Part shown: piece after piece, positions 5,154 to 38,292 of the stretch
Layout of the letters: each line of letters starts with the position of its first letter
Numbering within the stretch: the stretch's first letter is position 1
Translations under genes and position numbers: made by a program
The notes under the pieces: model-generated
What the model saw: the letters and a program-made list of their open reading frames with translations, nothing else
Told to the model about the DNA's origin: nothing
The model's database searches: none
Source: Candidatus Hydrogenedentota bacterium
GTDB taxonomy: Bacteria; Hydrogenedentota; Hydrogenedentia; Hydrogenedentales; JAGMZX01
NCBI GenBank assembly: GCA_029556545.1
Contig: JAKQEQ010000042.1
Coordinates: forward strand, 18,729-82,728
DNA length: 64,000 bases
Direction: 5' to 3'

Positions 5154-5188
5154 CCAAAAAACCGTGGCACGGGCGTCCCGCCCGTGGT
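5154..5188. terminator. GC-rich hairpin flanked by A6 (plus) / T6GGGTTT (minus), terminator-like, possibly bidirectional
   Basis: aaaaaaCCGTGGCACGGGCGtccCGCCCGTGgtc: 8-bp stem CACGGGCG/CGCCCGTG with a 3-nt loop. On the minus strand the hairpin is followed by TTTTTTGGGTTT. Confidence 0.35.
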
Positions 5189-5193
5189 CTTCA

Positions 5194-5245
5194 ATCATGG
5201 GCAAAATGCCCATGCCACGCAATCAACAGATACGCCGCAATTCGG
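5194..5245. repeat. copy 1 of a ~50 bp imperfect direct repeat (ATCATGGGCAARATGCCCATGCCACG...CAGATRCGCSGCAATT)
   Basis: About 84% identical (by hand alignment) to 6563..6612. Contains the small palindrome ATGGGCA-N3-TGCCCAT. Confidence 0.7.
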
Positions 5246-5313
5246 CGCGGCAATCTCTTCCTCCTCTCCGGTCTGCTATACTGGAGACGGACCGCGCCAA
5301 GAGGACCTCGAAA

Positions 5314-5613
5314 ATGGATTTGCCGATTGTTATCGACGAGGAACAGATCGCGGCATTTTGCCGCAAGCACCCCCTGACGAAGCTCGCGTTATTCGGGTCG
5401 GTGCTGACGGACCGCTTCGGACCGGACAGCGACGTCGACGTGCTCTTCGAGTACGACCCCCAACACGTGCCAAGCCTGTTCGACGTCGTCGAGATGGAAG
5501 AGGAACTCAGCGCAATCCTTGGACGCCGGGCCGACATGCGAACGCCCTGCGACCTGAGTCGCTACTTCCGCGACGAAGTCGTCCGCACCGCGCAGGTCCA
5601 CTATGCTGCTTGA
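5314..5613 (+). CDS. nucleotidyltransferase domain protein (MntA/AbiEii-like minimal nucleotidyltransferase), no HepT partner
   Basis: GSVLTDRFGPDSDVDVLFEY is the classic GS...DxD minimal nucleotidyltransferase motif. Start at MDLPIVIDEE (5314) inside ORF 5164..5613. No DUF86/HepT-like ORF downstream. Confidence 0.75.
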   Translation: MDLPIVIDEEQIAAFCRKHPLTKLALFGSVLTDRFGPDSDVDVLFEYDPQHVPSLFDVVEMEEELSAILGRRADMRTPCDLSRYFRDEVVRTAQVHYAA

Positions 5614-5839: not shown

Positions 5840-6133
5840 ATGCGGAAGAGAGAACCCGCCGTATACATTCTCGCAAGCCGGCGGAATGGGACCTTGTACA
5901 CTGGAGTTACAAGCGATCTGAGCAGGCGGGTCTGGGAGCACAAAACCGACGCGGTCCCGGGGTTCACCAAGAAGCATGGCGTACACCTGCTTGTGTACTA
6001 TGAATGGCATACAACCATGGACTCCGCCATATCCCGCGAGAAGCAGATCAAGAAGTGGAACCGCGCGTGGAAGCTGCAATTGATCGAGGACTATAACGCG
6101 GACTGGCGAGACTTGTACGAAGAATTGATGTAG
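5840..6133 (+). CDS. GIY-YIG nuclease family protein (97 aa)
   Basis: VYILASRRNGTLYTGVTSDLSRRVWEHK... is the canonical GIY-YIG motif with the conserved R and E. Size typical of stand-alone URI-domain proteins. Confidence 0.85.
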   Translation: MRKREPAVYILASRRNGTLYTGVTSDLSRRVWEHKTDAVPGFTKKHGVHLLVYYEWHTTMDSAISREKQIKKWNRAWKLQLIEDYNADWRDLYEELM

Positions 6134-6562: not shown

Positions 6563-6612
6563 GGATCATGGGCAAGATGCCCATGCCACGGCGTCAGCAG
6601 ATGCGCGGCAAT
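6563..6612. repeat. copy 2 of the ~50 bp imperfect direct repeat; overlaps the last 7 codons of hypE
   Basis: Matches 5194..5245. Together the two copies bound a ~1.4 kb segment containing the MNT gene, the GIY-YIG gene and both hairpin-repeat blocks. Confidence 0.7.
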
Positions 6613-7645
6613 TGCTCGCCGCTGAGCATATCGAGAATGCGCTGCGCGCCGATGCGGCTTTCGAGCGTGACCCGCCCTGGCGCGTCGGCGTGGGCGTGGC
6701 CGATGATCGCGGGCTGCGGCGCCTGGGGATGGCCGCGCAGCACGTCGAGCGCGCGCGCCGCGTCGTCCGCGGCGACGACCGCCATGAAGCGCCCCTCGTT
6801 CGCGACGTAGAGCGGGTCGAACCCGAGCAGTTCGCACGCGCCGCGCACGTCGTCGCGGACGGGGATGTCCGTCTCGCGCAGGTGCAACCCGACGCCCGCC
6901 GCCTGCGCGATCTCGTTCGCCGCGCTCACGAGCCCGCCCCGGGTCAGGTCGCGCAGGCAATGCACTTCGACGCCCCCGCGCAGCAGCGCGAGCACGGCGT
7001 CCGCCACCGGCGCGGAATCGCTCTCGATGGCCGTCTCGAATTCGAGCCCCTCGCGCGTGGCCATAATCGCAATGCCGTGGCGGCCCAGGTCGCCGTTGAT
7101 GAGGACGACGTCGCCGGGCCGCACCGCGCCGGGCCCGATGACGCAGTCGTGCTCGATGACGCCGATCCCCGCCGTGTTGATGAAGAGGCCGTCGCCGCCG
7201 CGCCGCTCGATGACCTTCGTGTCGCCCGTCACGACTTGCACGCCGCAGGCGTCCGCCGCGCGCCGCATCGACGCGACCAGCCGCAGCAGCAGTTCTATCG
7301 AAAGCCCCTCTTCGAGGATGAATCCCGCGCTAAGGTACAACGGCCGCGCGCCCGCCATCGCCAAGTCGTTCACCGTCCCGTGGACCGCCAGCGACGCGAT
7401 GTCGCCGCCGGGGAATTCGAGAGGCTGCACGACGTAGGAGTCCGTTGTGAACGCGATCCGCGCGCCGTCGATCGCGATCCGCGCCGCGTCGTGCCGCTGC
7501 GCCAGCAGCGGGTTGTCGAAGGCGCGGAGGAACACGTCCTCGATCAGGCGGTGCATGGCCGTGCCGCCGCCGCCGTGCGCCATCGTGATCACCGGGCTCG
7601 ATGCGTGCGGCATCGGGCAGGACAGCGTGAATTCCCCCGGCGTGC

Positions 7646-7649: not shown

Positions 7650-8745
<1,096 letters not shown>

Positions 8746-8977: not shown

Positions 8978-9000
<23 letters not shown>
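8746..9000 (-). CDS. hypC: hydrogenase assembly chaperone HypC
   Basis: Begins MCLAIPG (HypC/HupF signature). ~84 aa from that start. Upstream in-frame extension of ORF 8746..9039 disregarded. Confidence 0.85.
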
Positions 9001-11314
<2,314 letters not shown>

Positions 11315-11354
11315 GTTCGTCCTCGTACACGCGCTGCTGCGAAAATCGACTCGG

Positions 11355-11470
11355 GCAGGCCGGTCAGCCCGCTTCAGCGGGCTCTTCTTTGCCCCCGGCT
11401 TCAGCCGGGGGGTAAGAGGTCTTGCCCGGCAAAGGGCGCTTCAGCGCCGCTTGTGCACTGCTTCAGCATC
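11355..11470. repeat. multi-hairpin element (family B): three TTCA-loop hairpins GCCCGC-TTCA-GCGGGC, CCCCGGC-TTCA-GCCGGGG, GGCGC-TTCA-GCGCC, then CTTCAGC
   Basis: Read directly. Same order, spacing and linker sequences (tcYtctttgc, ggcgcttcagcgccgctt, cttcagc) as 37648-37760 but with different, compensating stem sequences. Confidence 0.7.
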
Positions 11471-11520
11471 CATTTTCGTCCTCTCCGGGAGAAACCACTC
11501 GTTTCATGACAACTCGTGAT

Positions 11521-11544
11521 CGTAATCGTAATCGTAATCGTATT
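11521..11544. repeat. hexanucleotide microsatellite (CGTAAT)x3 + CGTATT
   Basis: cgtaatcgtaatcgtaatcgtatt in the divergent intergenic region between hypF and the 11738 membrane-protein gene. Confidence 0.8.
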
Positions 11545-11737
11545 CCCACTCGCCCTCGTGCTACCCCGAGAATCGACCCGAACGCGTTAGGAGCGCGCCG
11601 CTCCGACCACCGCAAACGTTTGATAGCGCTCTCACCGCCATATATGATATGCGGGCTTGCCGGACACGCGCGAGGCGCGCGTCCTGATTCTTCGGCAATG
11701 CGGGGAGACGCCTGTGCATCACGGTCGAGACGCGGAC

Positions 11738-13579
11738 ATGCCCGGACAGAACGGTCGTCATGGACCCTATGGACGTGCTCGCCTCGCGTTGTTTGCATGT
11801 TGCCTCGCCGCCCTGGCCATTTTCTGCGGCGTGCCCGTGGCCGCGCAACCACCCGACGACACGGCAACGTCCGAGACAAGCGCGGCTGTTCCACAGGCCC
11901 CTGTTCCGCCACTGCCGCGACCGCCGGCCCCGCCCGCGCAGGCGCGTCCCCAGACGCCTCCGCAAACCCGCGGAGTAATCGTCCCGCCCATGAAGGATCG
12001 CGCGCAACTCGTCACGACGGACCCGGCCACGCCCGCGGACCGCTTGCGCACCGCCGTGACGCGGCTGCGGCCCCAACTCTTTTTGCTGATCTCGGTGGGC
12101 ACGGTCCTCATGGCCTTGGTCTATGTGGCGATTGCGCGTTGGCGCGTGCCGTTTCTTCGCGGCCTGCTGGCCGTGCCATTGCTCGGCATCGCGATCCTCT
12201 CTCTCGGCCACTACACCAGCTTCTATCCCTGGATCAGCAAGCACTATTTCAACGAATACGAGTTCTATCACTACTACATCGGCGCGAAATACGCGCCCGA
12301 GATCGGCTATACCAAGCTGTACGAAGCCACAATCATCGCCGATGAGGAGACGAAGCGCCTCTATTCCGCCAACTCCATCCGCGACCTCGCCACGGGCCGT
12401 TACCTGGGCGTTCCCAACGTCCTCGCCCGCAAGGACGAGATCAAAGCGCGCTTCTCGGAGGAACGCTGGGCCGAATTCGTCAAAGATATCGAGTTCTTCA
12501 AGCGGAACCTCGGCGGCGGACGCTGGTCGCGCATCCTCCGCGACAAAGGATACAACGCCACGCCCATCTGGGGCCTCACCGGCGGTCTCATCAGCAACGC
12601 CGTCAGCACGGACAACGTCAAGGCCCTGCGCGCCGTCGCGCTGCTCGATCCCGCGCTTATCCTCCTCGCGCTCCTGGCCGCGTTCTGGGCGTTCGGCCAC
12701 CGCGCGGCCTTCTTCGCGGCGGCCTTCTTCGGGATCAACTTCCTTACGATGCAGTCGCCCACCATGAAGGCCGCGTTCCTGCGGACCGACTGGATTATGC
12801 TGACGATCGTCGGCGCGGCGCTCATCAAAAAGGGCTGGTACAAGACCGCCGGCGGCGTCATGGCCTACGCGGGACTCGCCCGCATCTTCCCCGTCATTTT
12901 CGCCTTCGGCATCGGCGCGCGCGCCCTCGTCGAACTCGCGCGCACCCGGCGCATCCCCTGGAAGCACTTCCAGTTCTTCGCTGCCTACGCCATTGTCGGC
13001 GGCCTGCTCGTCGGCGCATCGGTGCTCTACGCGGGCGGCCTCCACCAGTGGCGCGAGTTTTTCGACAAGATCAGCTACCACAACAACGACATCTCGACGT
13101 GGCGCGTCGGCTTCCGATACGTCTTCCTCGGCACCTTCGACCTCGTGCCGCGCGGCGTCGATTGGTGGGCGTACAAAGCGCAGCTCCAGGAATTCCACGC
13201 TCAATGGGCGCACGTCTGGTGGGGCATCCAGGCGATCGTACTGCTCGCATCCGTCTATCTCGCCCGGTATCTCGACGACGGCGAAGCCGTCCTCTTCAGC
13301 TTCGTGCCCGTCTTCTTCCTCGTCGCGCCCACGCACTATTACTACATGATGCTCGTTATCCCCGCGTTGTTTTTCGCGGTGCGCATCGATTCGCCTTACC
13401 GCGCGGCGGGCCTCATCTACCTCATCCTCGCCGGCAACGTAGGCCAGAGCTACAACTACGTCGGCTGGCGCTTCCCCCTGGCCTTCGACATGTCGTGCGC
13501 CCTCCTCGGCATGGTCCTCTACATGATGTTAATCACCTGGATCGAGGGCCGCCTGCGCCGCCCGGCGCCGGATCAGTAA
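11738..13579 (+). CDS. polytopic membrane protein with N-terminal signal peptide and Pro-rich linker
   Basis: Signal-like LALFACCLAALAIFCGVPVAAQ, then a P/A/Q-rich linker, then more than 10 predicted TM helices. Start (11738) uncertain; ORF opens at 11657. No family recognisable from sequence alone. Confidence 0.6.
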   Translation: MPGQNGRHGPYGRARLALFACCLAALAIFCGVPVAAQPPDDTATSETSAAVPQAPVPPLPRPPAPPAQARPQTPPQTRGVIVPPMKDRAQLVTTDPATPADRLRTAVTRLRPQLFLLISVGTVLMALVYVAIARWRVPFLRGLLAVPLLGIAILSLGHYTSFYPWISKHYFNEYEFYHYYIGAKYAPEIGYTKLYEATIIADEETKRLYSANSIRDLATGRYLGVPNVLARKDEIKARFSEERWAEFVKDIEFFKRNLGGGRWSRILRDKGYNATPIWGLTGGLISNAVSTDNVKALRAVALLDPALILLALLAAFWAFGHRAAFFAAAFFGINFLTMQSPTMKAAFLRTDWIMLTIVGAALIKKGWYKTAGGVMAYAGLARIFPVIFAFGIGARALVELARTRRIPWKHFQFFAAYAIVGGLLVGASVLYAGGLHQWREFFDKISYHNNDISTWRVGFRYVFLGTFDLVPRGVDWWAYKAQLQEFHAQWAHVWWGIQAIVLLASVYLARYLDDGEAVLFSFVPVFFLVAPTHYYYMMLVIPALFFAVRIDSPYRAAGLIYLILAGNVGQSYNYVGWRFPLAFDMSCALLGMVLYMMLITWIEGRLRRPAPDQ

Positions 13580-21428: not shown

Positions 21429-23696
21429 ATGGATGCTGCCCCGTCGAGAAGGCTGTGCGCCGCGTGCGCCGTCGCGGCGTTCCTGTGCATCGCCGCGGCC
21501 ATGTTCACCCATACCGTCCTCGCCCGCGCCCCGTGGTTCGGCGAAGCGCCCATGAACATCGCCGGCTGGATGACCGGCGGTTCCACGCTCATGGCGAAGC
21601 ATTGGCACCACGAGGGCGCGTGCGCGATGCGGTTCGCCATGGTTTGGGAGCCGGACTCCATCGAGCAGCCGTACCTCGGCGAACGCACGCCCTACGTCTC
21701 CTATCCCCCCGGCGCGATCCTGCCCCTCCATCTGCTGGCCCTGTGCCGGGGCCGCGAACCGACGCCCAGCCTCGCAATGGCCCTCAACCTCGCGCTGCAT
21801 CTGGTCACCGCCCTGGTCCTCGCGGCAACCGTCGCCCTGTTATTGCGGCGCGCCGCATTCTCCCGGTGGAACGCCTTCGTCCTCGCGCTGGTCCCGCTGT
21901 CGCTCTATCTCTACCTCCCCATTGCCTACCACGAACACCTCATGAGCTACTTCGCCGACGCCGCCGTCCTTCCGCTCTACGCCCTCTTCATCTTCCTCGA
22001 AATGCTCAGAGACCGCGTCGAAAGACCTTGGATGCGTCGTTCGCTGGCCATGATTCAGGGGTTTGTCGGCGCGCTCGGGCTGCTCACCGACTGGCTATTC
22101 GCGTTCCTCGCGGCGTGCGTCTGGTTGGCGCGGCTCGGGCGCGGGCGGCTTGGGCGCGGCATCTTCGAACCCGCGCGAAACTCGCTCGTCTATGCCCTGC
22201 CCTTTGTGGCGGTACTCGCGCTCTTCATAGTCCAAGTGATCGCAATCGGGGGAAAAGACATGATCATCGAGCGGTTCCTCCTGCGATCGGGAGCCACGCC
22301 CGGCCACGGTCTCGCCGACGGTCGCAACCCGCTCGATTACGCCTCGCTGGACACCTTCCTCAGGTTCTCGCTCGATACGCGCTTCTGGAACGAGCATGTC
22401 CCCGCATCCTTCGGCCGACACGGAACACCGATCATCGTCTTCTCCTTCGCCGCATGGGCCGTCCTGACGCTCCTGACCGCCTTCAAGACCCTGCTTCACC
22501 GCCTCCGCCCCCGTCGTGGCCGGTCTCCCGACCGTGCCACCGACACGACCGAAGGTCTCCCCCGTTGTGGCCGGTCTCCCGACCGTACCACCGACACGAC
22601 CGAAGGTCTCCCCCGTTGTGGCCGGTCTCCCGACCGTACCACCGACACGACCGAAGGTCTCCAATCGTCCTCACCCTCGCCGAGAGCAAATGCCGCTGCC
22701 GGCCTGCTCGCCGCCGCGTTCCTGTATCTCGTTCCCTGCCTCCTCTACTACCACGTCTTCAAGCAGCACAACAACCTCCTCTTTCACCGCTACAGCACCC
22801 TCAAGTTCGCCCTGCCCCTGGCCGCGCTGCCCCTCGCGATCCTGCCGGCCGCGTGCTGGCGACTCTGGTTTCCGGCCCCCGCACCGCAACCCTTTCCCAT
22901 AGGTAAACGGGGGGAGTGGAAATTGGGTCCCTTGGCCGGTCGATGCGCTCCGGTGGCCCTGCTCGCGCTCGCCGCCGCGTTTCTCGTAGCCGTGACGCCC
23001 GAACGCAAGGCGCTCTTCTTCTCCGATGACGACCTCCGCCACGTCGCCGCCGGAAAGTTCATCGCCGCGAACACGACCCGGAACGACATCGTCTTCGCCC
23101 CCGCGCGCCCTGCCTGGGCCGATATGCCCCAGTTCCGATGCTACGCCATGAAGCGGCTCCACCCCGCGAGCTCCGTCTGGGACCTCTACGCCTTTGTGCG
23201 CGATATCGACGGTCCCTGGCGCATCGCGCTGTTCCTCGACCGCGCCGACCGGCTTGATCGGCTGCCGGAGTTGCGCGCGCTTGGGACCCTCATTCGGGAC
23301 CGCGTTTTCTTTCAGGGCGCGTTGTTGCTTTATGTTGATAAATGTATTTTTGCATCGTTTTGTGAACGTATACGTGTCAATACGAAACACCCGAATGACC
23401 GCAACCGCGATGGCCGACTGACCCTTGACGAACTCGCGCCCGTCATTGACGCCTATCTCGCCGGGGCCTATCACGACGACCCAAGCGCCCCTTCCGGCTA
23501 TGCCGCCGGGCCCGGCCCCGTTGCACTGCCGCATCCCGGAGACTACGGCCCGGACGTGGTGGACGGCCAAATCAATCTGTCGGAACTGCTCCGGCAGACG
23601 CAGTTGTACAATAGCGGCGGATACCGTTTCGACGCGACGGCGCAAGGCCGCTTCGCGCCGCACGCGCCCACGGAAACCACAGGAAGCATTCCATGA
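21429..23696 (+). CDS. polytopic membrane protein with internal 3x17-aa tandem repeat and C-terminal dockerin/EF-hand-like Ca-binding repeats
   Basis: More than 10 TM helices. PRRGRSPDRATDTTEGL x3. C-terminal DRNRDGRLTLDELAPVIDAY and DVVDGQINLSELL loops. Start chosen at MDAAPSRRL (21429); ORF opens at 21210. Confidence 0.6.
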   Translation: MDAAPSRRLCAACAVAAFLCIAAAMFTHTVLARAPWFGEAPMNIAGWMTGGSTLMAKHWHHEGACAMRFAMVWEPDSIEQPYLGERTPYVSYPPGAILPLHLLALCRGREPTPSLAMALNLALHLVTALVLAATVALLLRRAAFSRWNAFVLALVPLSLYLYLPIAYHEHLMSYFADAAVLPLYALFIFLEMLRDRVERPWMRRSLAMIQGFVGALGLLTDWLFAFLAACVWLARLGRGRLGRGIFEPARNSLVYALPFVAVLALFIVQVIAIGGKDMIIERFLLRSGATPGHGLADGRNPLDYASLDTFLRFSLDTRFWNEHVPASFGRHGTPIIVFSFAAWAVLTLLTAFKTLLHRLRPRRGRSPDRATDTTEGLPRCGRSPDRTTDTTEGLPRCGRSPDRTTDTTEGLQSSSPSPRANAAAGLLAAAFLYLVPCLLYYHVFKQHNNLLFHRYSTLKFALPLAALPLAILPAACWRLWFPAPAPQPFPIGKRGEWKLGPLAGRCAPVALLALAAAFLVAVTPERKALFFSDDDLRHVAAGKFIAANTTRNDIVFAPARPAWADMPQFRCYAMKRLHPASSVWDLYAFVRDIDGPWRIALFLDRADRLDRLPELRALGTLIRDRVFFQGALLLYVDKCIFASFCERIRVNTKHPNDRNRDGRLTLDELAPVIDAYLAGAYHDDPSAPSGYAAGPGPVALPHPGDYGPDVVDGQINLSELLRQTQLYNSGGYRFDATAQGRFAPHAPTETTGSIP
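22509..22661. repeat. 3 x 51 bp near-perfect in-frame tandem repeat inside the 21429 CDS
   Basis: cccgtYgtggccggtctcccgaccgtRccaccgacacgaccgaaggtctcc x3 with 2 mismatches. Also produces spurious minus-strand ORF 22095..22664. Confidence 0.9.
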
Positions 23697-33058: not shown

Positions 33059-34938
33059 ACACGCTCCGACGCTATTACGAGACCTTGCGGTGGCTGCGGC
33101 CCCGCCAGGTCCGGGCGCGCGTGGGTCTGCGTCTGCGCCGGGCGACGGACCCGCTGTGTTTCCCGCGGCGGCTCGCCCGCGCGATACGCCGCGAGGGCGC
33201 CCCGCCGGATTTCGCGCCGCACGTGCGCGATGGCCGCCTGGGCGGTGTCGCGGCGCGGCCCGCCCTTGACCCGGAAGCCATCCTCGCGGGCGAGTTTCGA
33301 TACGCGAACGTGACGCGCCGGTTCCCGGACGCGCCGGACTGGCTCTGCCCCGATCCGGCCCAGCGGTTCTGGTACTACAACCTGCATTATTTCGAGTACG
33401 GCCCGGCGCTGGCGCATGCATGGCGCGACACGGGGAACCGGGCCTATCTCGAACGACTGGAGGCGCTCCTGCGTTCGTGGCTCGACGCGAACCCGCCCGG
33501 ACCGACCTTCGCGTGGGACGGCGGCCCCCTTTCCCACCGCATCATCCACTGGTGCGACACGGCCTTTGTGCTTTCCGGCGAATTCAGCGACCGGGCCATC
33601 GCGCGGGCGTTCAAGGATAGTCTGTACACCCAGGCGCTCTACCTCGAAGACCACCTCGAATATCACCTCGGCGGCAATCATCTGCTCGCCAACGGCGTCG
33701 CGCTGCTCCATGCGGGCGCGGCATTCGCGGGACGCGCCGCCGCGCGCTGGCGCGATCGGGGCCTGCGCATCCTTCTCGAAGAACTGGAAGAACAGATTCT
33801 CGATGACGGCGGCCACTACGAGCGTTCGCCGATGTACCACGCGATCGTGCTTGATCAGTGCCTGCGCGCGATGCGCCTGGTCCGCGCGGCGGAAATCCCG
33901 GAGCCGCCGCTATTGCGCCACAAGATCGTCGCAATGGCGCGTTTCCTCGGCAACGTGCGCGCGCCCGACGGTGAAATCCCGCTGCTGAACGACGCGGCCT
34001 TCGGCATCGCGCGTCCGCCCGCCGCCTTGCTCGAAGAGGCCGCGGCGCTGCTCGACGCGCCCGAACTCCGTGACGCGCCCGCAGGCATCGTGGCGCTGCC
34101 CGATACCGGCTTCTACGTCGCGCGGCCCCAGCCGGACGATTTCCTCGTGTTCGACGCCGGCCCCGTCGGGCCGGACTACAACCCGGGCCACGCCCACAGC
34201 GACACGCTTTCCTTCGAGTTGTCCCTCGGCGGACGGCGCGTCGTCGTCGATTCGGGAACGTTCAGCTACGCCGCCGACCCGTGGCGCGAATACTGCCAGA
34301 GCACGCGCGCCCACAACACCGTGATGATCGACGGCGTCGAGCAGACGGAAAAATGGGGACCTTGGCATTTCCGGGTCGCGCGCCGGGCGAAGCCCGCGGA
34401 CGTGGACTGGTACGAACACGAGGGGCTCGTCGTGTTCCAGGGGAGTCATACCGGCTATGACCACCTGCCCGGCGGGCCGCGCCACGTGCGGCGCGTGTTG
34501 CTTATCGAGGCGCGCCACTGGGTCGTCTACGACGAGGTGTGGGGCGCGGGCGATCACGTCGCTGAGAGTTTCCTGCATTTCCATCCCGAGGTGACCTTGA
34601 CCGACGACGGCGCGTCCTGGCGGGCCGATGCGTCCGGCCACGATTTGCGCGTCCTCTTCTTCGGCGAGGGCGCGGTCGAGCGGCTTCCCGCGACGGAGTC
34701 GCCACCCCAGGGGTGGTATTGCCCCGAGTTCGGCCTGCGATTGCCCCAGGCGGTCTTGCGCGCGACGGCGCGCGGCCAGCTCCCGCTGCGCTTCGGCTGG
34801 GCGCTGTTGCCGGGGGTGCAAGAGGCGGAAATCGCTATCGAAACATCGCAGAAATACATCGCCCTGCGGTGCCGTTTCGATGACGCGACATACCTGTTGC
34901 GCCAGACCCGAGGCGGGCGATTCCATCGCGCGCCGTAG
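33055..34938 (+). CDS. heparinase II/III-like protein
   Basis: 627 aa. N-terminal alpha-toroid (alginate-lyase-like) region and C-terminal Hepar_II_III motif [14 protein letters not shown]. Start overlaps the GT4 stop (ATGA). Confidence 0.8.
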
Positions 34939-35053
34939 GCCGCAGGTTTGCGGGGAATCGCTCCGGTCTTCTACAATAACGCCGTCTAACCGGTCCGTGG
35001 GTGCGGCTGTCTTTCCCCCAAGTTGTAGCGGATCAAGCAAGAGGAACTGTGCA

Positions 35054-37324
35054 ATGGCTTTCGATTTCGACGTGATTCAAACGGTGTATGGGCGGCTTCC
35101 CGAGCGTGTGGCGGCGGCGCGCAAGCTGCTCGGACGGCCCATGACGCTCGCCGAGAAGACACTTTATGCCCACCTCTGGGAAGGGACGCCGACGCAAGTC
35201 CACACCCGCGGCGAATCCTACGTGAACTTCGCGCCGGACCGCGTCGCCATGCAGGACGCCACCGCGCAGATGGCGCTGCTCCAGTTCATGCAGGCGGGCA
35301 AGCCGAAGACCGCGGTGCCGTCGACGGTCCATTGCGACCACTTGATCCAGGCGGAGACCGGCGCGGCGGCGGACCTCAAGAAATCGCTCGACATGAACCG
35401 CGAGGTCTTCGATTTTCTGGCGTCGGTCTCCAACAAGTACGGCATCGGCTTCTGGAAGCCGGGCGCGGGCATTATCCATCAGGTGGTCCTCGAAAACTAT
35501 GCGTTCCCCGGCGGCATGATGATCGGCACCGATTCGCATACGCCGAACGCGGGCGGGCTCGGGATGCTCGCCGTCGGTGTCGGCGGCGCGGACGCGGTGG
35601 ACGTCATGGCGGGTATGGCGTGGGAACTTAAGTTCCCGAAGCTGATCGGAGTGCATCTCACGGGCCACCTGAGCGGCTGGGCCTCGCCCAAGGACGTGAT
35701 CTTGAAGGTCGCGGGCATCCTCACCGTAAAGGGCGGCACGGGCGCGATCGTCGAGTACTTCGGCGAAGGCGCGGAGAACCTGTCCTGCACGGGCAAGGGC
35801 ACCATCTGCAACATGGGCGCCGAGGTCGGCGCGACCACCTCGACCTTCGCGTTCGACGAGTCGATGCTGCGGTATCTCGAGGCGACGGCGCGCCCGGACG
35901 TGGCCGAGGCCGCGCGGCAAGTGGCCGATCACCTGCGGCCCGACCCGGAGGTGTACCGGGACCCGGCGAAGTACTTCGACCAGGTGATCGAGATCGACCT
36001 GAGCGCGCTCGAACCCCACCTGAACGGCCCCTTCACGCCGGACCGCGCCACGCCGGTGTCCCAGATGCGCGTCGAATGCGAGAAGTACGGCTGGCCGCGC
36101 GCGGTCGAGGTCGGCCTCATCGGCTCGTGCACCAATTCGTCCTACGAGGACATGACGGCGGCGGCCTCGATTGCGCGGCAGGCCCGCGAGAAGAAACTCA
36201 AGGCGAAGGCCGAGTTCACCATCACGCCCGGGTCCGAGCAGGTCCGCGCGACCATCGAGCGCGACGGACTCCTCACGGATTTCGAGGCCATCGGCGGCGT
36301 CGTGCTCGCGAACGCCTGCGGACCCTGCATCGGCCAGTGGGCGCGCCACCGCCACGGCGGCAACGACCAACCAAACACGATTGTCACGTCGTTCAACCGC
36401 AACTTCGCGAAGCGCAACGACGGCAACCCGAAGACGCACGCCTTCGTCGCGTCGCCTGCCCTTGTGACCGCCCTCGCCCTCGCGGGCGATCTCGCGTTCA
36501 ACCCCGCCGCGGACAGCCTGATGAACGAAGAAGGGCATCCCGTGCGGCTCGACCCGCCCGCGCCCGTCGAATTGCCGCCGAACGGCTTCGGCTGCGACGA
36601 CCCGGGCTATGTCGCGCCCGCCACGGACGGTGCCGCCGTCCAGGTGGCTGTGCGGCCCGACTCGAAGCGCCTGCAACTGCTCGAACCCTTCGCGGCCAAC
36701 ACGGAGCCGGCGCTGACCGGGCTGCGGCTGCTGATCAAGGCCAAGGGCAAGTGCACAACGGACCATATATCTATGGCGGGACCGTGGTTGCGTTTCCGCG
36801 GCCACCTCGACAATATCGCGGATAACACGCTCACCGGCGCGATTAACGCCTTCAACGACGAGCCGAACAAGGTCAAGAACCTGCTCACCGGCGAATACGG
36901 CGAAGTGCCGAAAGTGCAACGCGCGTACAAGGCCCAGAGCGTCGGCACAATTGTCGTGGGCGACGAGAACTACGGCGAGGGCTCATCCCGCGAGCACGCG
37001 GCCATGCAGCCGCGCCACCTCGGCGTGCGCGCCGTACTCGTCAAGAGCTTCGCGCGCATCCACGAGACCAACTTGAAGAAACAGGGTATGCTCGCCCTCA
37101 CCTTCGCCGACCCGGCGGATTACGACAGAATCCGCGAGGACGACGTGATCGACATCCTCGGCCTCGATGCGTTCGCGCCCGGCAAGCCGCTCCGTCTCGT
37201 CCTGCGCCACGCCGACGGCACCACCGACGAATGCGCCGTGAACCACACCTACAACGACGCCCAGATCGCGTGGTACAAGGCCGGCGGCGCCCTCAACCTC
37301 ATCCGCGCCGGCGCGGGGGCGTGA
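35054..37324 (+). CDS. acnA: aconitate hydratase (mitochondrial-type/AcnA-like, 756 aa)
   Basis: Aconitase family motifs ([33 protein letters not shown]). Start [10 protein letters not shown] at 35054 inside ORF 34628..37324. Confidence 0.9.
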
Positions 37325-37421
37325 GTTGGCTGCTTTTTGGTGCATTCGTGGTCGGTTAAGCCGCTGCACATAACGTCTCCAAGCGTATAACGCATACTTC
37401 TTCCTCGTCTGCACGAATTGG

Positions 37422-37503
37422 CCTGGATTCCCGCTTCCGCGGGAATGACGGAGAAGAGGGCCAAATTCGCCCCCGGCGTCATTCCCGCGGAAGCGGGAAT
37501 CCA
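37422..37503. repeat. inverted pair of family-A hairpin units (CTGGATTCCCGCTTCCGCGGGAATGAC ... GTCATTCCCGCGGAAGCGGGAATCCAG)
   Basis: Read directly. Same unit as the 6185-6450 array. Gives spurious IPASAGMT peptides in ORFs 37249..37527 and 37418..37627. Confidence 0.85.
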
Positions 37504-37647
37504 GAAAGACACAGACAGTGCCCTCAACCGAACACGAATGCTTTTTGGTGTGCTGTTCCGCTATTACCGCTGGATTGCCGGATTCTTGGCGGAGTCGCGG
37601 TCGAATCGCGGCGTATGTTGCGGATAGCGCGGACGACTTGTTAGCGC

Positions 37648-37860
37648 GCTTCAGCGCGCTCCTCTTTGCACCCTGCTTTAGCAGGGGTGTAGGGGAGTTG
37701 CCTTTCCGGACAGGGCGCTTCAGCGCCGCTTTCCGGATGGCTTCAGCGCTGAAGCGCTTGAAAAGCCGCGCTGAAGCGCGCTCTGGCGGAGGGGAGTCTT
37801 CCTTTCACCCCGCATGAATGCGGGTGCAAAGAGGAGCCCGCCGAGGCGGGCTAATCAGCC
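37648..37860. repeat. multi-hairpin element (family B copy 2): GCGCGC-TTCA-GCGCGC, ACCCTGC-TTTA-GCAGGGGT, GGCGC-TTCA-GCGCC, CTTCAGCGCTGAAG palindrome, plus two further hairpins
   Basis: Same architecture and linkers as 11355-11470 with compensatory stem substitutions. Intergenic between acn and recD2. Confidence 0.7.
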
Positions 37861-38292
37861 CCTGAGACGCCGCAGTCGGCAACAGCGGAGTTGCACCCGC
37901 TTTTTCTGGATGAGAGCGGCCACGACCATCGGCACGTGCCGCATGAGGTTCGGGGAGGGGTGGCGATCCATGCCCGCGAAGTGTGGCCATTCGTGCAAGA
38001 TCTGCAATCTCTCGAGCTACATGCTTTCGGAGCGAATCTGGCCCGCTTTGCAGAGGAGTTGAAGGGGACAAAGCTTCTGGACAGGGATCGCTTCAAATGG
38101 GCGCGGCAGAAGGTTCCGATGCCCGAAGAGTCCCGGCGGAAGCAAATTGCGAGGCCCAACCCGAAGCCGGCTTCGGTTGAACTCGCCGGCGGCGGGGAAG
38201 CAGCGAAAACCTCGCCCGCTTTTGCGCCGCGCGGTGCGGATGCCGTATCGTTTGCTGGGCGTGGACGGGTGCATTTCGAGGGCGGGACGGTT

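Follow-up and report, generated by a model that had tools for sequence, protein, structure and literature searches.

The intergenic repeats of family B are probably the terminal module, about 105-125 nt long, of a small IS200-like element, together with the gene-less derivatives of that element. The full unit of about 700 bp consists of a left arm, a gene for a Y1 (HUH) transposase of 140-156 aa and a right arm that is an inverted left arm. The window, the whole 64-kb stretch of DNA that was analysed, holds non-autonomous forms alone: a solo arm upstream of hypF and a doublet between acn and recD2 that is laid out as the unit minus its gene.

Each arm is built from three GC-rich hairpins with TTYA loops, the T-rich linker GCTCYTCTTTGC and the tail GCTTCAGC. 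A T[TC]AG tag leads into hairpin H1 (a GC stem of 6-7 bp closed by a TTCA loop), which is followed by the linker CTCYTCTTTG and by H2, C[A/C]CCNNN TTYA NNNGG-G-G[T/G]G, with a single bulged G on its 3′ side. Some 25 variable nucleotides 3′ of H2 separate it from H3 (AG[C/G]GCGC TTYA GCG[C/T][G/C]-N-CT), and about 8 nt further on lies the short tail, a fourth arm motif that was missing from the earlier description. A search of the window with a covariance model (R1) built from 21 related arms recovered just three copies, referred to as c1, c2 and c3. The copies and the genes beside c1 are as follows.

8978-11314, minus strand: hypF
11364-11467, plus strand: c1, a solo arm, from sequence and R1 (105.6 bits over 11356-11477, E ~1e-33); DNA fold z = -4.1
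11364-11367, plus strand: TCAG tag of c1
11366-11383, plus strand: H1 of c1, AGCCCGC TTCA GCGGGCT
11384-11391, plus strand: T-rich linker of c1
11392-11412, plus strand: H2 of c1, CCCCCGGC TTCA GCCGG[G]GGG, with the bulged G; a variable stretch lies 3′ of it
11433-11451, plus strand: H3 of c1
11460-11467, plus strand: tail of c1, GCTTCAGC
11990-13579, plus strand: 529-aa gene, the other neighbour of c1
37641-37747, plus strand: c2, left half of a tail-to-tail doublet, from sequence and R1 (112.6 bits over 37633-37757, E ~1e-33); DNA fold z = -5.3
37641-37644, 37643-37660 and 37661-37668, plus strand: TTAG tag, H1 and linker of c2
37669-37689, 37712-37730 and 37740-37747, plus strand: H2, H3 and tail (GCTTCAGC) of c2
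37748-37854, minus strand: c3, the inverted right half of the doublet, from inverted repeat I2, alignment and R1 (106.7 bits over 37738-37862)
37748-37755, 37764-37782 and 37807-37827, read on the plus strand: tail (GCTGAAGC), H3′ and H2′ of c3
37828-37837, 37836-37852 and 37851-37854, read on the plus strand: linker′, H1′ and CTAA tag of c3

The exact 12-nt linker occurs three times in the window, confined to these copies, and the DNA folds of the window copies are 3-5 standard deviations better than those of shuffled sequences. The inverted repeat I2, detected by a repeat scan, pairs 37641-37708 with 37787-37854 (68 nt, 72% complementary). All three copies are intergenic. The first lies between hypF and the divergent 529-aa gene. 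The doublet occupies the spacer from acn to recD2, two plus-strand genes, and c2 stands there in the sense orientation, some 300 nt past the acn stop codon. The original prediction had described two copies in this gene context, with stems differing as GCCCGC/GCGGGC versus GCGCGC/GCGCGC and CCCCGGC/GCCGGGG versus ACCCTGC/GCAGGGGT, and both copies, their quoted stems and their neighbours were found as described. Its count of two becomes three, since a complete copy also lies on the minus strand. What it had read as a continuation of the second copy, a 14-bp palindrome (CTTCAGCGCTGAAG) followed by two further hairpins, is really the junction of the c2 and c3 tails, in which GCTTCAGC runs directly into GCTGAAGC, together with the hairpins of c3.

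Two of the neighbouring genes appear to be annotated too long. The longest aconitase ORF (34628-37324) encodes 898 aa, 84% of which is covered by homologues of about 756 aa; given these shorter homologues, the true start is probably near 35054. For HypF, a 767-aa protein with identity across 99% of the query points to a start approximately 11 codons downstream of 11314.

The stems of the arms vary in a manner that preserves pairing. When 54 metagenome arms were aligned by fitting to the covariance model, 97.8% of stem cells were paired, compared with 82.4% in column shuffles and 31-48% in controls with slid partners, and double changes were present at 10 of the 20 pairs (121 cells). A plain MAFFT alignment of 21 arms gave identical helices with 8 covarying pairs. 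The TTYA loops, their closing G-C pairs (GC-TTYA-GC), the bulged G of H2 and the linker are near-invariant. G-T cells outnumber A-C cells by 22 to 5, so that the “forward” strand is the strand under selection to fold. The compensatory changes first noted between two copies are thus general across the 54 arms, and the proposal that pairing rather than sequence is conserved holds statistically in both alignments, which bears out the structural inference drawn from it. That inference had left a choice between a structured RNA and a structure-specific protein-binding site. The second option is favoured, at the level of single-stranded DNA (ssDNA), and the RNA option disfavoured, because the arms flank a Y1 gene, occur in unrelated contexts and in both orientations, are absent from the hypF site of a relative and have no match in Rfam.

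Relatives of the arms were found in other genomes by several routes. A two-anchor pattern in which H1 and H2 were unconstrained gave 15 true loci in species-representative genomes, and a 16-mer spanning the linker and the foot of H2 gave further loci in metagenomes; a Clostridia locus (L011) was set aside as a chance pattern match. Applied to 150 fetched loci, R1 detected about 70 arms. Solo arms and inverted doublets alike stand beside unrelated genes, and either orientation is found. The DNA patterns by themselves identified 36 arm loci: a Y1 gene is present in 3, tail-to-tail doublets number about 22 and solo arms about 13, a ratio of gene-less doublets and solo arms to gene-bearing units of around 10:1. 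The solo arms are full-length, and the doublets are always oriented as the arms are around the Y1 gene. The centre of one doublet (L005) retains “CATG” and “AATGGCTGA”, the initial and terminal codons of the Y1 gene carried by the same MAG. On account of these codon remnants, the gene-less doublets look like internal deletions of the transposase unit.

The phylum labels of the arm-bearing MAG contigs, “Bathyarchaeia” included, are unreliable and were rejected as a guide to host range. Identical contigs with a Y1 unit (L002 and L003) are found in bins labelled Nitrospiraceae and Ktedonobacterales, and at least one of them must therefore be mis-binned.

An all-against-all comparison of the ORFs near the arms yielded one common protein, of 146-156 aa, encoded between two inverted arms. 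It matches Pfam Y1_Tnp at 4.6e-20 and the NCBIfam equivalog transpos_IS200 with 61.9-65.7 bits against a cut-off of 55, a model matched by all 33 homologues; the match to NCBIfam REP_Tyr_transpos is weak and extends to 11 of the 33. Conserved over these homologues are the HUH motif (HVHL), WQRGYG and Y119-x3-Q123 (YxxxQ). The profile of the family matches the TnpA structures of IS608 and ISDra2 at 7e-14 to 1e-11, and no match to TnpA_REP chains was obtained at E values up to 10.

The gene has arms on both sides in L002, L013, L093, L145, L146 and L150, and is partly flanked by arms in L021, L019, L018 and L023. The association also holds in the opposite direction, as arms are present at the nine Y1 homologue loci that were fetched by protein identity alone. 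Of these, L145, L146-149 and L150/151 have arms on both sides, L021 has a left arm and a weak right arm, L019 has a left arm alone, and the arms of L018 and L023 are degenerate. In 8 of 9 units the ATG lies 0-4 nt 3′ of the left tail GGCTTCAGC; a GGAGG shortly precedes it. The TGA falls within GCTGAAGC of the right arm in 4 of 9 units, and TGAAG is retained in 7 of 9. As both start and stop are embedded in the arm tails, the arm is the whole non-coding end of the ~700-bp unit. Up to 5 samples share one Y1 protein at an unchanged locus, and one Y1 gene was seen per MAG, in metagenome fragments from which genome copy number cannot be read; this fits a stable, low-copy gene. No Y1 transposase was found in the 64-kb window by tblastn or by profile search (best E = 5).

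The aconitase of the window has a 100% identical counterpart in a Candidatus Hydrogenedentes MAG. A related Hydrogenedentes contig, L155, has a syntenic order of neighbours and a HypF that is 81% identical. Its intergenic region upstream of hypF measures 143 bp, compared with 675 bp in the window, and the contig gave no covariance-model hit. One extra block of the window is missing there.

~11337-11616, no strand assigned: extra block of about 280 bp (approximate coordinates) that takes in c1 and its 3′ extension, the latter closing with (TAATCG)n; missing in L155

IS200/IS605 elements insert 3′ of a specific tetra- or pentanucleotide and produce no target duplication. The arms of family B start at T[TC]AG and finish at T[TC]AGC, and the sole empty-site comparison, that with L155, is too diverged for nucleotide resolution. 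No arms were found in the contigs of relatives whose aconitase is 91-92% identical. An orthologous empty site for the acn-recD2 doublet was sought in these relatives and had to be abandoned, as synteny downstream of acn is lost.

The surroundings of c1 contain further repeats. A c1-like arm in L095, in a different context, shares a 55-nt 3′ extension that is 94% identical. In the window this extension is closed by a short (TAATCG)n / CGTAAT tandem at 11515-11542, and a shorter run closes the L095 copy. An imperfect direct repeat of about 30 nt, TCGTAC.CG.GCT.C..CGA.AATCGAC, brackets c1 at 11323-11352 and 11551-11580 (20 of 30 positions match). The same motif is present in L095 (~7865-7893), upstream of an unrelated UvrD-like gene, and its first half occurs once upstream of hypF in L155 (~5962-5985). 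A duplicated target, a promoter element and a small repeat are all possible readings.

By analogy with the TnpA enzymes of IS200/IS605 and with REP-RAYT systems, the hairpins would form on one strand of transiently single-stranded DNA, where a putative Y1 transposase acting in trans would bind them. Such an enzyme may read the shape, the bulge, the loop and the flanking TYAG tag, and not the stem sequence, so that the stems would drift freely while pairing is kept. Shape recognition of this kind would give a DNA element the covariation expected of an RNA. TYAG itself is, by conjecture, a candidate target or cleavage site. H1 and the T-rich linker could additionally act as a putative terminator on neighbouring genes.

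The copies in the window may have travelled by other means. It is possible, albeit doubtful, that they are passengers of other mobile units, with c2 and c3 having been carried at the core of a 349-bp MITE that is bounded by short terminal inverted repeats (TIRs) and 9-bp target duplications and was mobilized by a DDE transposase and not by Y1. The block in question was delimited by blastn and by inspection of its flanks.

37550-37898, no strand assigned: 349-bp block holding the c2/c3 doublet

This block recurs in L102 (797-1148) at 92% identity, with unrelated flanks and sharp boundaries. Its ends are imperfect inverted repeats of about 20 bp, GTGCTGTTCCGCTATTACCG and CGGCAACAGCGGAGTTGCAC, with 14-15 of 20 positions matching. 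The L102 copy is bracketed by the 9-bp direct repeat AAAGAGAGG, with an extra T before the right-hand copy, and the window copy by the imperfect repeat GCTTTTTGG(T) and GCTTTTTCTGG. The short inverted ends and 9-bp repeats are hints of a DDE-type arrival of that copy. However, the duplication at the window ends is imperfect, the outer block is known from these two copies and was encountered nowhere else in the ~1 Mb of fetched loci, and its outer ends are missing from all other doublets. At most, the MITE accounts for how one copy arrived, not for the nature of the family, for which the Y1-associated terminal module is preferred.

Directly upstream of this block, a unit of about 200 bp (37342-37540) contains an inverted pair of NTS-like repeats. 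It occurs twice in L095, at 78% and 75% identity overall and up to 95% over the best 105 nt. With the family B doublet, it makes the 566-bp acn-recD2 spacer almost wholly two stacked doublets, family A and then family B.

A second alternative is that the copies are kept mainly for a role in the host of the kind served by REP-like hairpins, namely termination or insulation of transcription, stabilization of mRNA 3′ ends or binding of nucleoid proteins, with mobility being historical. REPs have been reported to terminate transcription and to stabilize mRNA (PMC6006769, PMC3733652). In the window, H1 of c1 with CTTCTTTG fits a simple terminator pattern, and c2 lies in the sense orientation past the acn stop codon. 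Yet c1 sits in a divergent promoter region and not at a 3′ end, and the H1 hairpins of c2 and c3 were not called terminator-like. Moreover, hypF of a close relative does without the element, and the contigs with ~91% identical aconitase are armless. No link of the repeats to any particular host gene was found. A host function as the main reason for retention is hence considered unlikely; a side role at the host level is possible.

The reading of the arms as structured-RNA genes or cis-elements (an sRNA family or UTR element), with the covariation reflecting RNA function, is considered very unlikely. It would explain the strong covariation in three helices, and the bias of G-U-compatible wobble to one strand (22 versus 5 cells) fits RNA too, as does the high conservation of linker and loops across MAGs labelled as different phyla. 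Against it, the arms stand in both orientations relative to their neighbours and form inverted doublets, their sole recurrent neighbouring gene is the Y1 transposase, and the orthologous hypF site of L155 is armless. No promoter-like site was found upstream of the copies, and the RNA folds of four transposase-proximal arms were no better than shuffles (z +0.6 to -1.6). Neither the window as a whole nor the two regions scanned separately matched an Rfam (15) family, at gathering or at permissive thresholds, the sub-threshold miRNA-like and SRP-like hits being artefacts of the inverted doublets.

Four narrower candidates were rejected. Sequestration of the transposase ribosome-binding site (GGAGG before the tail) by the linker CTCCTCTTT fails, since those same four left-arm RNA folds gave no consistent pairing of linker and Shine–Dalgarno sequence; the reverse-complement linker AAGAGGAG is 55-70 nt away from the starts of hypF and recD2, a distance too great for it to be such a site itself. 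An integron attC is contradicted by its core GTTRRRY, which GTTAGCC misfits, and by the housekeeping genes alongside, and a guide RNA of omega, bridge or tracr type by the inspected arms, beside which no TnpB, IscB or IS110 was noticed and the sole shared ORF is Y1.

For the preferred reading of family B as the ends of an IS200-like unit and their gene-less derivatives, one implication is that covariation of the RNA type does not by itself establish an intergenic repeat as an RNA gene: the same signature is left by hairpins that HUH transposases recognize as ssDNA. The family adds a well-defined and unusually long multi-hairpin repeat, paired with an IS200-type Y1 protein, in poorly studied candidate phyla. 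Such repeats confound the prediction of sRNAs and terminators and fragment metagenome assemblies, and the pair of arm and transposase is a candidate ssDNA-recognition module. More tentatively, the IS200-clade Y1 protein and the three-hairpin arms might constitute an independently evolved partnership of REPIN-RAYT type in Hydrogenedentota and Sumerlaeota, in which a single-copy, stably located transposase maintains the gene-less arms. If so, a single arm with TYAG at either end would amount to a complete minimal single-strand transposon, and IS200 stock would have led by a second route to long-lived populations of intragenomic repeats.

The window contains a second dispersed hairpin repeat with a nuclease of its own. 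Family A, CGTCATTCCCGCG[C/G]AAGCGGGAATCCAG, is an exact fit to the published NTS consensus CGTCATTCCCGCGCAAGCGGGAATCCAG (PMC11893778).

5625-6460: family A arrays, flanking a 97-aa GIY-YIG gene at 5840-6133 on the plus strand (Pfam 3.7e-16)
2809-2839, 37423-37451 and 37475-37505: further family A copies

The segment 5625-6460 is, judged by its sequence, an Ssn-NTS locus in a Hydrogenedentes genome. The closest relative of the GIY-YIG gene in a plasmid collection is a Neisseria gonorrhoeae record (61% identity). Its homologues in Neisseria, Azospirillum, Sinorhizobium and Novosphingobium each have their own flanking hairpin repeats, which are CCTC-tagged in Sinorhizobium and CGTC-tagged in the other three. 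A 58-nt direct repeat, 81% identical and starting ATCATGGGCAARATGCCCATGCCACG, is located at 5194-5251 and 6565-6622 and brackets a nucleotidyltransferase gene (5164-5613), the Ssn gene and the NTS arrays; it possibly marks the boundary of a larger inserted segment. Elsewhere in the window, three tandem 51-nt repeats (CCCCCGTYGTGGCCGGTCTCCCGACCGTRCCACCGACACGACCGAAGGTCTCC), 96% identical, occupy 22508-22662.

Of the known systems, IS200/IS605 elements share with family B a total length of about 700 bp, a single Y1 TnpA of IS200 type and ~150 aa, and hairpin-rich non-coding ends. The left end of IS200 carries a terminator hairpin, which the outer hairpin and T-rich run of family B resemble. Classically, however, IS200/IS605 elements lack terminal inverted repeats, and their two end hairpins lie on the same strand, whereas the ends of family B are inverted copies of ~120-125 nt; this counts against the IS200-like reading.

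The REP/REPIN-RAYT systems (REPtrons, BIMEs) were described by Nunvar 2010, Bertels & Rainey 2011 and Ton-Hoang 2012. As in these, a Y1 gene is flanked by inverted repeats (at ~10 family B loci), the repeats are extragenic palindromes in which pairing is kept through compensatory changes, inverted doublets predominate and gene-less copies, dispersed extragenically, far outnumber the gene. A short tag at the 5′ foot is also common to both, TYAG in family B and GTAG in REP. Compensatory changes are common in REPIN hairpins (PMC3116915), and they follow from the reading of hairpin shape on ssDNA by HUH enzymes (PMC6006769, PMC5027513). The two differ in that a REP is one hairpin of 20-40 nt, whereas a family B arm is 105-125 nt long and has three to four hairpins. 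Family B is tagged T[TC]AG as opposed to GT[AG]G, and its protein, assigned to transpos_IS200 in all 33 homologues, falls outside the TnpA_REP clade of the RAYTs, whose genes occur once per genome and are passed on vertically.

In anatomy, family B corresponds more closely to the TIRtrons than to these REPtrons. TIRtrons consist of Y1 genes between long TIRs that overlap the gene ends, and single and dimeric TIR copies are dispersed (Di Nocera et al. 2013; PMC3733652). Family B likewise has a Y1/HUH gene between long inverted repeats (here ~125 nt) that cover its start and stop codons, self-complementary tracts within the repeats, and dispersed gene-less singles and dimers (TIRtrons also form groups). 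It differs in the make-up of its arm, in which three covarying hairpins and a tail stand in fixed order and the published GGGGWSAS motif is missing, and in its hosts, which are uncultured genomes of Hydrogenedentota and Sumerlaeota type. The protein scores as an IS200-type TnpA.

The Ssn nuclease with its NTS/SRM hairpin repeats is a precedent for ssDNA protein sites: in that system a small nuclease gene sits between copies of a dispersed hairpin repeat specific to it, and the repeat is recognized as ssDNA (Nat Commun 2025, PMC11893778). It is distinct in that Ssn is a GIY-YIG and not an HUH enzyme, and its different repeat is a single 28-nt hairpin. As a strict REP/RAYT assignment fails on unit size, tag and protein clade, and a classical IS200 assignment fails on the inverted ends, family B is filed under the broader class of Y1-transposase-associated repeats. 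The best reading is that of a non-autonomous mobile repeat of REP/TIR type, of the REPtron/TIRtron kind, in a Candidatus Hydrogenedentes genome.
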